Below the pieces are notes generated by a model. It ran no database searches. It was not told the DNA's origin and saw nothing but the letters and a program-made list of their open reading frames with translations. From Actinomycetota bacterium (GTDB lineage: Bacteria; Actinomycetota; Geothermincolia; Geothermincolales; RBG-13-55-18): a stretch of DNA of 64,000 nucleotides. Positions 2,678 to 6,494 of the stretch are shown piece after piece. Every line of letters starts with the position of its first letter. Within the stretch, counting starts at the first letter, position 1. Position numbers and translations under genes: made by a program. Where the stretch lies: positions 934 through 64,933 of the forward strand of contig JAFGDU010000097.1 of NCBI GenBank assembly GCA_016931915.1, given 5' to 3'.

Positions 2678-3151
2678 TTACATGGACCACCATATTTCTT
2701 CTCTATGGATATCTATGTCAGCGCCTTGGTCGGTGCAGGTCACGATGATGGTGATGTCCCATCCGTTCTTCTGCAGGTTCCAGATGGCCTTGTTGTGCCC
2801 ATTCGGGAGCTTGGTTATCCCTGCGGGTTCTCCCAGCTGTCCTTTGTACCACTCGTGCACGGTCTGAAAGCCGTCCGTCGTCTTGTATGAGAGGTCCGTG
2901 CTCTCTTCTTCGCTGTCGGGCTGGGAGGAGGACTTAACGATGGAGAGCTCGTCGACGTTCTGGTCGTATACGGGCACTCCGAGTTCCGCTTCAGAGGGCA
3001 GCTCCTTTGTAAACGGCTCCTCGGATTTCTGGTCTTCGCCCGTGAACACCGCTATATCGTCCTCGCTGCATCCGCACCCCCCGCATCCCGAGAGGCAACC
3101 GACGGTCATGATAACAGCGATGACGAACAGGCAGAACAGCTTCCTCCTCAT
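2678..3151 (-). CDS. Hypothetical lipoprotein (GCGGCGC lipobox), paralog of 2138-2614
   Basis: Signal peptide plus LSGC; RBS AAAGGAG upstream; motif sharing with 2138-2614. Confidence 0.75.
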   Translation of the reverse strand: MRRKLFCLFVIAVIMTVGCLSGCGGCGCSEDDIAVFTGEDQKSEEPFTKELPSEAELGVPVYDQNVDELSIVKSSSQPDSEEESTDLSYKTTDGFQTVHEWYKGQLGEPAGITKLPNGHNKAIWNLQKNGWDITIIVTCTDQGADIDIHREEIWWSM

Positions 3152-3246
3152 GAGTCTCTCCTTTGCTCCTGTGTTCGTATGCCTAGTTTTTCATCGGTCG
3201 CGTGCCTCGAGGCCTTAACGGTACTTCGAGCGCACGAAAAGGACTC

Positions 3247-3284
3247 TTGACGTAACTTACGTTATCTGATAACGTAAGTTACGT
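3247..3284 (+). promoter_or_regulatory. Promoter overlapped by a perfect 17-bp inverted repeat (probable PadR operator)
   Basis: TTGACG (3247-3252), 17 nt, TAACGT (3270-3275); ACGTAACTTACGTTATC-T-GATAACGTAAGTTACGT at 3250-3284, ending just before the ATG at 3286. Confidence 0.8.
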
Positions 3285-3285
3285 T

Positions 3286-3753
3286 ATGGGACGTATATTC
3301 AGACGGGGAGAACTTAAAGAGGTGCTCGTGATCATCCTTGCGAGCCTGGGTGAGGCGCACGGCTATGCCATCATGACCGAGCTGAAGGAGCGCATAGGGG
3401 GGGGATGGAAGCCGAGCCCGGGTGCCATCTACCCCGCGCTGCTGGCGCTGGTGGAGATGGGCTATGTCCAGACGACGGAAAAAGACGGCACGCGCATGTA
3501 TTCACTAACTGAAGCAGGCCGGCGCGCTGCGAAGAAAAGCAGCTCGGCTGGCCGCTGGGCGTCCCTGAGCGCTCGCTCCGAGAGGGACGAGGGGCGCATA
3601 ACCATCGGAGCGCTGCTCGACCGTTTCGCGGCGCAATCGAAATTGCGGCGGCGGCTAGCGGGGCCCGAGCAGGAGCAGCAGATCGAGAAGATACTCGTGC
3701 GCGCGAGCGGCGAGATCGAGCAGGTGTTAAAGAAAGGAGATAACGATGGATGA
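3286..3753 (+). CDS. PadR family transcriptional regulator
   Basis: 'HGYAIMTELKER..GGWKPSPGAIYPALL.L...GYV...RMYSLTEAGR' is a canonical PadR winged helix. Confidence 0.92.
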   Translation: MGRIFRRGELKEVLVIILASLGEAHGYAIMTELKERIGGGWKPSPGAIYPALLALVEMGYVQTTEKDGTRMYSLTEAGRRAAKKSSSAGRWASLSARSERDEGRITIGALLDRFAAQSKLRRRLAGPEQEQQIEKILVRASGEIEQVLKKGDNDG

Positions 3754-4021
3754 GTTCGGCGAGCTGTCGCTGAGGGAGCGGGAAGCCAGGCGCATCGCCC
3801 GGCGCCAGTGGTTCTGGCTGCATTTCGCGGTCTACGCGGTAACACAGGTTTTTCTGTTCGTTATCTGGCTGCTCAGCTCGGCCTCTTACCCCTGGTTCAT
3901 ATTCCCGCTCTTCGGGTGGGGGATCCTGGTCGCGGCCCATGCGGTATACGCTTTCGTGGTGCGCGATCCGGAGGAGATCATGGTCGAGCGTGCGGCACGG
4001 CAGGCGGGAAAGCGGCAATGA
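3746..4021 (+). CDS. 2TM domain small membrane protein
   Basis: 'FWLHFAVY...LFVIWLL...YPWFIFPLFGWGILVAAHA' matches the 2TM family pattern; RBS AAAGGAG. Confidence 0.85.
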   Translation: MDEFGELSLREREARRIARRQWFWLHFAVYAVTQVFLFVIWLLSSASYPWFIFPLFGWGILVAAHAVYAFVVRDPEEIMVERAARQAGKRQ

Positions 4022-4836
4022 GCTGGTTGCTGGGCCCGTACGCCGAGATGAGGACCTACCGCGTCCTCGCGTACCTGCTGCTCGGCCTGCCCCTCGGGAT
4101 CCTCGACTTCACCATCGTGGTCACCGGGCTCTCACTCGGTCTCGGCCTGATCATAACGCTGGTCGGTATCCCCGTGCTCGTCGCTACCCTGCTCGTCGTA
4201 AGAAGCCTAGCGGCAATGGAGAGAGGGCTTGCCGTTTCGCTGCTGGATGCGCCCATGCCGCGCCGCGTGCCGGGGCGTGAGCGGGAGAGCGGGTTCTTCT
4301 GGGCGCGCCTGCGCGACCTCGTCTTCGGCAGACACACCTGGGAGGAGATGGGCTTTCTGCTCCTGCGCCTGCCCCTCGGGATCCTCGACTTCACCGTTGC
4401 CGTGACCATCGTAGCGCTCGCACTCTGCGGCATCGCCATGCCGATAATCGTGGCGGCCGGCGTACCGGCATCGGTAGGTTCGTGGGAGATAGACACGTTC
4501 GTGGAGTCCCTCGCCTACCTGCCGGTCAGCGCCCTCTTCCTGCTCGTAGGCCCCCGGCTTATCCTCGCCTGGGGTGAGCTGTCGCGGTGGCTCGCGACCG
4601 CTCTACTCGGCCGCATCGAGCCCCGGGAATCGAAGCGTGCGGTCGTCGACGTACTCGCCAGCATAGGAGAGGCCGACGGGTTCCGCATCCTGGACGAGCT
4701 CGAGCTGCGCATCGGTCGCGGACCTTTTCTGACTCCGACCCGCCTCGAGGCGACCCTGCTGGCGCTCGAGTCGGCGGGACAGGTCAGCGCCCGCCACGAA
4801 GGCGGCCGGACTTTTTATACACTGGCCCAGAGCTGA
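4018..4836 (+). CDS. Membrane putative-sensor domain protein with C-terminal PadR-like winged helix
   Basis: ATGA overlap with the 2TM stop; 'YLLLGLPLGI...LVGIPVL...AAMERGLA..LL' and 'TW..MGFLLLRLPLGI' fit the actinobacterial Sensor (PF13796-like) domain; the C-terminus aligns to the upstream PadR. Confidence 0.8.
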   Translation: MSWLLGPYAEMRTYRVLAYLLLGLPLGILDFTIVVTGLSLGLGLIITLVGIPVLVATLLVVRSLAAMERGLAVSLLDAPMPRRVPGRERESGFFWARLRDLVFGRHTWEEMGFLLLRLPLGILDFTVAVTIVALALCGIAMPIIVAAGVPASVGSWEIDTFVESLAYLPVSALFLLVGPRLILAWGELSRWLATALLGRIEPRESKRAVVDVLASIGEADGFRILDELELRIGRGPFLTPTRLEATLLALESAGQVSARHEGGRTFYTLAQS

Positions 4837-5114
4837 AAAACATGGTTTTTTGCGAGAAGGATGGAAAAAGAAATGCTAAGAAAGGCCGGGTCAGACCAGG
4901 AGATCGAGACTGGATGCGGGAATGAGCCACAGCTGCCTCTGCCTCATGGAGAGGAGCAGAATAAAGAAAGCGTGCCGAATGAACGATGATAAGGTAGTCG
5001 TCGATTCCCTCGTGGGAGTCGGGACGAAGGAAAGTTGGATCATTGGCGTCCGGGGTGGGAGCGCGTATAATCACACCTTGTATGCTGAAAAACGGAAGAA
5101 AGAAGAGTGATCAA

Positions 5115-6494
5115 TTGAAGCTGCATCTTGTTGCCCCGACCAAGCAGGGCGAGTCGTATCTGTTCAATAAAGGGCTCCTGGCTCCCCTCGGCCTCATGTA
5201 CCTGGCGGCTTATACCCCGCCGGAGGTCGAGGTGAAGTTGATCGACGAGAACGTCGAACGCGTCGATTTCTCCGATGTCCCCGACCTGGTGGGCATCACC
5301 ACCATGACCGCTACCGCACCACGGGCATACCAGATCGCCGGCCGCTACCGCTCCCAGGGGGCCAAGGTTGTGTTGGGCGGCGTACATGCCTCCATGATGC
5401 CCGAGGAGGCGCTGCGCTATGCCGATAGCGTGGTGATAGGGGAGGCGGAGAGCATCTGGCCGCAGGTCCTCTCCGACTTCGAAGCAGGACGGCTCGAGCC
5501 CATTTACCGCCAGGAGGACTTTATTGATTTCAGGCGCCCCATCCAGCCCCGCCGCGATATCATCGACCCCAAGCGCTACTGGAGCGCTAACGGCGTGCAG
5601 ACCGCGCGCGGCTGCCCCCACGGCTGCAACTTCTGCTCGGTGACCGCCTTCAACGGGCGCCGGGTACGTATGCGCGACGTGGACAACGTGCTGGCCGAGG
5701 TGGAGTCCCTGCCCCGCCACAACCGCATTCGCAACAAGGTAGTGGCTTTCGTCGACGACAACATTGCCGCACATCCCACCCGCGCCAAGGAGCTCTTCCG
5801 GGGGCTCATCCCCATGAACCTGAAGTGGGGTTCGCAGGCTTCCATCACTTTCGCCCGGGACGAGGAACTGGTGGCCCTTGCGGCCGAGAGCGGCTGCCAT
5901 TTTCTCTTCATCGGGCTGGAGACAATGAACCGCAAGGCCCTGGCCGAGATGGGAAAGAGCCAGAACAAGGTGGAGGAATACGCCGACTCCTTGCGGCTGC
6001 TGAGGAAGTATGACATCCACGTCATGGGCGCCTTCGTCTTCGGGTTCGATAGCGATGACGAGTCCTCGTTCACTGACACCCTGGAGTTCGCCACGGATAA
6101 CCAGATACAGGTGGGCCAGCTAGCCCACCTCGTCCCTTACCCGGGGACGCGCCTCTACAACGATTTGATGGCACAGGGCCGCGTGGAGCCGGAGTTCTGG
6201 TTCGAGCCTTCCTGGGATGCCAGGGTTGTGTACACGCCCAAGAACTTCACCGCGCAGGAACTCACCGATCTCACCCATAAGGTACAGAGTGATTTCTACT
6301 CCTACCGTTCCATCGCCAGGCGCATGTACCTGCACCGCCACTGGAGCTACTGGTTCGCATTCAACCTCCTCTACCGCCATTCCCTCACGGGCGGCCGTTC
6401 CCACGAGGTGGGGGACCACGCGGGAGGCGGGAACGGCAGAAAATGGTGGTTCTTCCGCCGTCCCGAGAAGGCCTGGGCGACTAAGTCCGCTTAG
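5115..6494 (+). CDS. B12-binding domain radical SAM protein
   Basis: 'APLGLMYLAA', 'VLGGVHAS', 'TARGCPHGCNFC' (CX3CX2C); probable TTG start at 5115. Confidence 0.9.
   Translation: MKLHLVAPTKQGESYLFNKGLLAPLGLMYLAAYTPPEVEVKLIDENVERVDFSDVPDLVGITTMTATAPRAYQIAGRYRSQGAKVVLGGVHASMMPEEALRYADSVVIGEAESIWPQVLSDFEAGRLEPIYRQEDFIDFRRPIQPRRDIIDPKRYWSANGVQTARGCPHGCNFCSVTAFNGRRVRMRDVDNVLAEVESLPRHNRIRNKVVAFVDDNIAAHPTRAKELFRGLIPMNLKWGSQASITFARDEELVALAAESGCHFLFIGLETMNRKALAEMGKSQNKVEEYADSLRLLRKYDIHVMGAFVFGFDSDDESSFTDTLEFATDNQIQVGQLAHLVPYPGTRLYNDLMAQGRVEPEFWFEPSWDARVVYTPKNFTAQELTDLTHKVQSDFYSYRSIARRMYLHRHWSYWFAFNLLYRHSLTGGRSHEVGDHAGGGNGRKWWFFRRPEKAWATKSA

Follow-up and report, generated by a model that had tools for sequence, protein, structure and literature searches.

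PadR-family repressors encoded beside membrane proteins have been described both as a concept and in experiment. The nearest concept is the dyad of a HAAS-domain protein and a PadR-like winged helix-turn-helix (wHTH) protein, a computational proposal in which such pairs replace the histidine kinase/response regulator pair (Ravi et al., bioRxiv 10.1101/2020.09.24.301986 / PMC11237479, in the part of the text available). The nearest experimental case is the lltR operon of Listeria monocytogenes (lmo0599-0601), which is autorepressed and shows a 150-fold derepression in an lltR mutant (PMC6624303, available part). Here we describe a three-gene operon of the order PadR-2TM-Sensor, located in the region 3247-4836 of a 64,000-nucleotide stretch of an Actinomycetota genome (GenBank assembly GCA_016931915.1, contig JAFGDU010000097.1, positions 934 to 64,933 of the forward strand; hereafter the window). 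Its membrane sensor protein ends in a winged-helix domain of PadR origin, which suggests a kinase-free route from membrane to gene.

The operon shares with the HAAS-PadR dyads a standalone PadR-like repressor gene placed beside the gene of a protein with several transmembrane (TM) helices. The membrane partner of these dyads is, in the part of the proposal available, suggested to hold or release PadR, and a similar role is proposed here. The differences are that none of the three proteins contains a HAAS domain (DUF1700, DUF1129 or DUF1048; Pfam, E ≤ 1), that the contact would be made by a copy of the PadR wHTH, and that the TM input is composed of PF13796 and PF13239. With the lltR operon there are in common three genes, PadR coming first and membrane or envelope proteins following; in Listeria, a member of the Firmicutes, the partners are however DUF1700 and DUF4097 proteins, and the available part of that account attributes no PadR-like domain to the membrane protein. 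A third relationship links the window's Sensor protein to the Sensor(PF13796)-HisKA_3-HATPase_c kinases of Actinomycetota (PMC10663231, available part), which possess the same N-terminal four-TM input (loci L027, L032 and L037) and are in some cases fused to 2TM, whereas the window's protein has no DHp (dimerization and histidine phosphotransfer) or ATPase domain, ends in a wHTH of 76 aa and has no response regulator gene nearby. The literature yielded no account of a membrane sensor with a PadR-like domain fused to it, or of a PF13796-PadR architecture, although the supplementary tables of the HAAS paper may list further architectures.

All three genes lie on the + strand, and the stop of each of the first two overlaps the start of the next. 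The first (3286-3753) encodes a PadR-family repressor of 155 aa (PF03551, 62.3 bits, E 4.5e-17), the second (3746-4021), which overlaps it by 8 nt (ATGGATGA), a 2TM-domain protein of 91 aa (PF13239, 57.9 bits, E 1.1e-15), and the third (4018-4836), joined to the second by an ATGA overlap, the Sensor protein of 272 aa; the Pfam gathering cut-offs are 27 bits for PF03551, 24.8 for PF13239 and 28.2 for PF13796. The overlaps and the Pfam assignments bear out the three overlapping genes of a first-pass annotation that had been made from the sequence alone. Residues 1-197 of the Sensor protein (4018-4608, + strand) form a membrane domain with four long TM helices (PF13796, 116.6 bits, E 1.5e-33, residues 19-197), and residues 197-272 (76 aa; 4606-4836, + strand, stop codon included) form a PadR-derived winged-helix tail, identified by homology, AlphaFold2 (AF2) modelling and Foldseek comparison.

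The central claim of the first-pass annotation, that the Sensor protein ends in a homologue of the operon's own PadR, is upheld. Residues 197-272 align with residues 1-77 of PadR with 31 of 77 positions identical (40%) and one gap (BLASTP E 7e-10 in a single comparison), and in this alignment the PadR motif SPGAIYPAL falls opposite TPTRLEATL of the tail, as had been proposed. A profile of 22 tails matches one of 21 cognate PadR proteins over 78 columns with an hhalign probability of 98.5% (E 1.9e-15). When the tail profile was searched against 1.84 billion representatives, 41 proteins were returned at E ≤ 1e-3. Judged by length and match position, most of these represent fragments or the C-terminal ends of fusion-type proteins; eight of them have 82-159 aa and match, as cognate PadR does, from residue 2-7 onwards, and the 14 matches that were inspected comprised seven of the cognate-PadR type and seven fusions or fragments. 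Since pairwise, profile-profile and profile-search homology all point there, the tail is, on the strength of these alignments, a derivative of the operon's PadR lineage. The window tail gave no match to any Pfam family at E ≤ 10, and thus none to PF03551; two divergent fusion members (P0148 and P0154) match Pfam PadR with E values of 0.002 and 0.006 but do not reach the curated cut-off.

The AF2 model of the Sensor protein, computed from a 49-sequence alignment, has a mean predicted local distance difference test (pLDDT) value of 88.4 and a predicted template modelling score (pTM) of 0.79. Within it the tail (pLDDT blocks 87-93) adopts a helix-strand-helix-helix arrangement followed by a beta-hairpin, with helices at 202-216, 221-232 and 240-252 and strands at 256-261 and 264-269, and is separated from TM4 by a linker of four residues (198-201). 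The protein ends three residues past the last wing strand, so the tail lacks both the C-terminal domain of PadR subfamily 1 and the helix alpha4 of subfamily 2; an additional 'SLTxxGxxAL' segment is found only in the L022-L024 clade and in the divergent members. Foldseek comparison of the tail with the PDB returned only winged-helix proteins (MecI, Z-alpha, CzrA/ArsR, Fur, PadR 4esf and LmrR), with alignments of 64-76 columns, many root-mean-square deviations of 1-2 A and E values of about 1e-2, in agreement with the winged-helix fold that had been anticipated. The top match, MecI (E 0.014, 12% identity), reflects a generic wHTH likeness. Like BlaR1/MecR1 with BlaI/MecI, the operon combines a membrane sensor, here proposed to act on PadR, with a soluble wHTH protein that very probably represses its own genes, but no protease or penicillin-binding domain is encoded here.

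The fusion is recurrent. In metagenomic clusters the best 120 of 313 matches all contain PF13796, have lengths of 263-308 aa and cover 89-100% of the query, which gives a lower bound of at least 120 full-length fusions. Among contigs sampled at one genome per species the tail was matched in 24 loci, labelled Actinomycetota, Acidimicrobiia and Gaiellaceae, together with two metagenome-assembled genomes (MAGs) labelled Acidobacteriota. The synteny with PadR and 2TM is strict across 25 loci: 23 have PadR upstream and 24 have 2TM there, the loci that lack one begin at a contig end, and no further conserved neighbour surrounds the operon. When 401 genomes from across the phylum were sampled, four had the fusion, namely the window's own, two of the seven other genomes of the genus, and one more in the family, and the cognate PadR type (E ≤ 1e-77) is confined to the same four; the next PadR match has E 4e-28. 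Genomes flagged as unpublished in this PadR search support none of the statements made here. More distant relatives of this PadR, resembling it in the C-terminal region (E 1e-28 to 1e-13), are present in 101 further genomes; none of the ten such loci examined (L101-L110) has a 2TM or Sensor neighbour, and this has no bearing on the module. The tail had been called a degenerate PadR copy. This term gives a wrong picture of a domain that is conserved and evolves under purifying selection: the 22 tails compared have a mean column identity of 59% and include invariant and near-invariant positions, and across 11 pairs the ratio of nonsynonymous to synonymous substitution rates (dN/dS) lies at 0.16-0.52, close to the 0.11-0.30 of the membrane part.

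Two departures from the three-gene layout were noticed in these loci. In one (L011:1006-2834) the PadR match is weak (E 1.9e-18, open reading frame (ORF) 1359-1757) and similarity to 2TM lies inside a long ORF (1006-2025), which may be due to a frameshift or an assembly problem. Operons of the Gaiellaceae type carry a fourth small gene, encoding a hydrophobic protein of 84-103 aa, between 2TM and the Sensor-wHTH gene (L022:3705-3962, L023:2005-2259, L025:3711-3965 and L021:3693-4004); the one member scanned had no Pfam match.

The residues by which PadR proteins contact DNA differ between the soluble protein and the tail. Tyr20, Tyr42 and Lys67 constitute the PadR-family DNA-binding signature in B. 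subtilis PadR numbering, and Arg2, Trp34 and others contact the DNA backbone in the B. subtilis protein (Park et al., PMC5728393, available part). In the 21 cognate PadR proteins the signature is retained (Y27 and Y49 in all 21; R70 in 20, with K in the remaining one), and the Trp34 equivalent, W41, is invariant. The 22 tails depart from it: the Tyr20 equivalent is F222 (F in 20, Y in 2), that of Tyr42 is E244 (E in 18, Q in 3, K in 1), that of Trp34 is P236, and the Lys67 column holds the non-basic T265 in the window, an Arg occurring one position earlier in 15 of the 22. The canonical contact residues have thus been replaced in the tail and kept in the soluble PadR. Moreover, in a binding mode like that of PadR the membrane would occupy the position of the DNA, since the N-terminal Arg2 of B. 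subtilis PadR contacts DNA and the N-terminus of the tail lies four residues from TM4.

The soluble PadR is composed of an N-terminal wHTH (about residues 9-74) and a family-specific helical C-terminal domain (residues 76-154); its AF2 model (pLDDT 82.7) is matched in Foldseek by RosR, B. subtilis PadR, Rv3488 and LmrR. The palindrome that had been noted upstream of its gene is real, with 17-nt arms at 3250-3266 and 3268-3284 that are 100% complementary, and comparison across loci resolves it into two separate 13-bp palindromes of the form ACGTAAsTTACGT. Predicted operator box 1 (ACGTAACTTACGT) is an exact match at 3250-3262, and predicted box 2 (ACGTAAGTTACGT) at 3272-3284 ends 1 nt 5' of the PadR start codon, in a leaderless arrangement. 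Paired boxes (up to two mismatches) at a spacing of 21-23 nt precede PadR in 19 of 23 loci, and in 16 the distance from the end of a box to the start codon is at most 2 nt; the operator layout of four Gaiellaceae-type loci differs from the two-box type. The hexamer TTGACG at 3247-3252 (+ strand) overlaps the start of box 1, and such an overlap with the start of a box is found in 15 of the 23 promoters compared (first box). That it is the -35-like element of the operon promoter we infer only from reading the sequence, since a consensus promoter scan made no call there. A search of sequencing runs listed none of RNA for 3100-4900 and one of DNA that contains the whole stretch and may be its source.

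In a search of the 3.9-Mb genome (92% complete) boxes 1 and 2 were the sole exact copies and the sole box pair. No wider PadR regulon was detected genome-wide, single boxes with one mismatch numbering two, against two for a reversed control pattern. Because the paired boxes cover the promoter and occur nowhere else as a pair, PadR very probably represses the leaderless transcript of its own operon.

The membrane part of the Sensor protein consists, in the AF2 model, of helices 11-43, 50-76, 105-146 and 161-197, with a disordered Arg-rich loop (77-93) and very short outer loops. Nine Arg residues lie in 62-105, no Lys or Arg in 147-162 and no Arg in 44-49; this distribution argues that both termini are cytoplasmic and that little of the protein is exposed outside. 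The domain is an internal two-helix repeat, residues 12-65 matching about 105-165 with 27 of 61 positions identical (E 0.004; LLGLPLGILDFTIVVTG versus LLRLPLGILDFTVAVT). Foldseek found no match for it in the PDB, the only return from the ESM Atlas was the protein's own 'putative sensor' cluster, and an NCBIfam scan added nothing for the 272-aa protein. The 2TM protein is the most conserved of the operon (79% mean column identity, 15 sequences), and its N-terminal cytoplasmic segment, MDEFGEL..REREARRIARRQWFWLH, is nearly invariant.

It had been stated that the Sensor domain usually feeds a HisKA_3 kinase, and the relatives agree; fusions in other lineages also link the 2TM protein to Sensor proteins. 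Kinases of the form Sensor-HisKA_3-HATPase_c are present in L027 and, with a C-terminal 2TM, in Thermoleophilaceae (L032:4067-5725 and L037:3998-5728), where the C-terminus would re-enter the membrane because 2TM follows HATPase_c; a Pfam scan found neither HisKA_3 nor HATPase_c in the window's protein. In an Anaerolineaceae MAG (L049:3830-5317, + strand) Sensor (PF13796), 2TM (PF13239) and Trans_reg_C are joined in one protein of 496 aa, with about 90 residues between 2TM and Trans_reg_C. Among 55 loci matching the Sensor domain only, there are nine in which a single ORF matches the 2TM protein as well as the Sensor protein. As both domains match single ORFs or fusions in other lineages, 2TM is, by these domain matches, a recurrent partner of the Sensor input domain, and the tail likewise is seen to occupy the output position held in relatives by a kinase or a DNA-binding domain.

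Two further arrangements were observed among the relatives. The L049 protein has the build of a membrane-tethered OmpR-type regulator, and a divergent ArsR-type gene lies upstream of it (3404-3748, - strand). In Chloroflexota/Anaerolineales a Sensor-only protein of about 195-210 aa is encoded directly 3' of an RHH_8 (PF17723) regulator of 130-136 aa (L031, L033, L034 and L052, for example L052:1721-2110 and 2123-2707; two of these loci were confirmed by Pfam), which suggests another pair of Sensor protein and soluble regulator.

The possibility that we tentatively favour is a membrane module that works without a kinase: the tethered PadR-like domain would touch the soluble PadR directly and control it in this way. 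Soluble PadR would bind the two palindromes over the -35 region and the leaderless mRNA start and so repress the operon. The four-TM Sensor domain and 2TM would constitute the membrane input, most likely sensing within the bilayer, because almost nothing is exposed outside. The tail would then hold or release PadR as TM4 moves, and a membrane signal would in this way alter expression of the operon. What is shown comprises the homology, fold and conservation of the tail, its co-inheritance with PadR, the replaced residues, the short linker and the operator; the contact between tail and PadR we infer. Complex prediction for PadR and the tail returned no answer (score 0.00; two runs, no controls), which counts neither for nor against it. 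A more specific version, the 'paralogue-trap', is rather doubtful: a DNA-blind wHTH copy on the sensor, driven by movement of the adjoining TM helix, would bind its partner repressor, which would be titrated to or released from the membrane, and in one variant the copy would occupy a site on the repressor's C-terminal domain at which a wHTH can dock. If this were true, the kinase phosphorelay would have been replaced by stoichiometric capture on the same Sensor/2TM input.

Several observations weigh against control of PadR by a DNA-blind tail. The recognition-helix residue R242 is conserved (R in 16 and K in 3 of the 22 tails), as is a wing Arg (15/22), the net charges are alike (-0.2 for the tail and -0.7 for the PadR wHTH), and the Tyr42 equivalent is kept in divergent fusion members. 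The Sensor-2TM-Trans_reg_C protein of L049 indicates that a DNA-binding domain tethered to the membrane can be driven by the same input. Simple pseudo-dimerization of tail and PadR is not obviously possible, because the tail lacks the PadR C-terminal domain, which in subfamily 1 supplies approximately 70% of the dimer interface (PMC5728393, available part). The similarity between tail and PadR is only slightly higher within a locus (82.8) than between loci (79.2), an excess that comes mainly from the L022-L024 clade; in the test for co-variation or gene conversion 153 of 10,000 shuffles, which ignore relatedness, reach the observed value.

The best surviving alternative, unlikely in our estimate, is that the tail binds DNA directly with a specificity of its own, following the logic of ToxR and CadC, with 2TM as co-sensor and PadR merely setting the level of the operon. 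This is a live rival, because the tail keeps the recognition-helix Arg and a relative fuses Sensor and 2TM to a true DNA-binding domain. The tail stands at the exact position of the output domain in the relatives, T239 and T241 are conserved along with R242 and the wing Arg, there is a weak similarity to the ArsR-type wHTH 2kko (E 0.001-0.007), and some fusion members have been annotated automatically as ArsR-family regulators; furthermore, the PadR operator is confined to this operon in the genome, so that without DNA binding by the tail the module would act on nothing but itself. On the other side stand the loss of the Tyr20, Trp34 and Tyr42 equivalents, the last to an acidic residue in 18 of 22 tails, the linker of four residues compared with about 90 in L049, and the lack of a dimerization helix or C-terminal domain after the wing. 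Direct DNA binding would also leave the strict co-inheritance with a paralogous PadR unexplained. The comparison with ToxR/CadC (co-sensors ToxS/LysP) is itself only partial. A membrane-tethered wHTH and a small membrane co-protein encoded alongside are shared, but ToxR and CadC carry an N-terminal wHTH of the OmpR type, a long linker and one TM helix, whereas the domain of the window is PadR-derived, C-terminal to four TM helices, attached by its short linker and devoid of the PadR DNA-contact residues. Pfam detects no Trans_reg_C in the window's Sensor protein, and the L049 protein is the closer ToxR analogue.

A second alternative, which we regard as improbable, assigns the tail an internal regulatory or structural role, docking on the Arg-rich loop of the Sensor domain or on the N-terminal helix of 2TM. 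The membrane proteins would then be effectors (e.g. in membrane protection), PadR would sense a signal of its own, and its paralogy with the tail would be a matter of history only. The whole-model pTM suggests that the tail has a definite position against the membrane domain, the N-terminal segment of 2TM is nearly invariant, and the sole detectable regulon is the operon itself, as in the lltR operon with its membrane-protein effectors (PMC6624303, available part); against this, Sensor and 2TM domains are not known to have any effector activity, and the position of the tail is filled by signalling outputs in relatives. That the tail is a decaying, functionless remnant of a chance duplication and fusion, as its divergence past Pfam recognition might be taken to mean, is very improbable in view of its dN/dS values and column identity, its retention in at least 120 clusters and 24 species, and its confidently predicted fold.

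Divergent from the operon lie two paralogous small proteins (2138-2614 and 2678-3151, both on the - strand), each with a lipoprotein-like signal peptide ahead of a Cys-rich SGCGGCGC motif, which are not kept beside the operon in other loci. On its 3' side a protein of 483 aa (5043-6494, + strand) contains a CxxxCxxC motif (CPHGCNFC), from which we take it to be radical-SAM-like; only the closest relatives (L001, L002 and L008) have it at this place.

The physiological reach of the module is probably narrow, as it is limited to uncultured Actinomycetota and has a scattered distribution even inside the genus. If the tethered domain does control PadR, the operon would nevertheless represent a compact transmembrane route that requires neither phosphorylation nor proteolysis, and one that arose by duplication of the repressor's DNA-binding domain onto a sensor. 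The PF13796 input, with 2TM, would then have been wired to three or four outputs: (i) a kinase, (ii) an OmpR-type DNA binder, (iii) a PadR-derived domain and, possibly, (iv) none, beside an RHH regulator. In that case the uncharacterized Sensor and 2TM domains would become experimentally tractable in an operon that is small, self-contained and equipped with a sharply defined operator.

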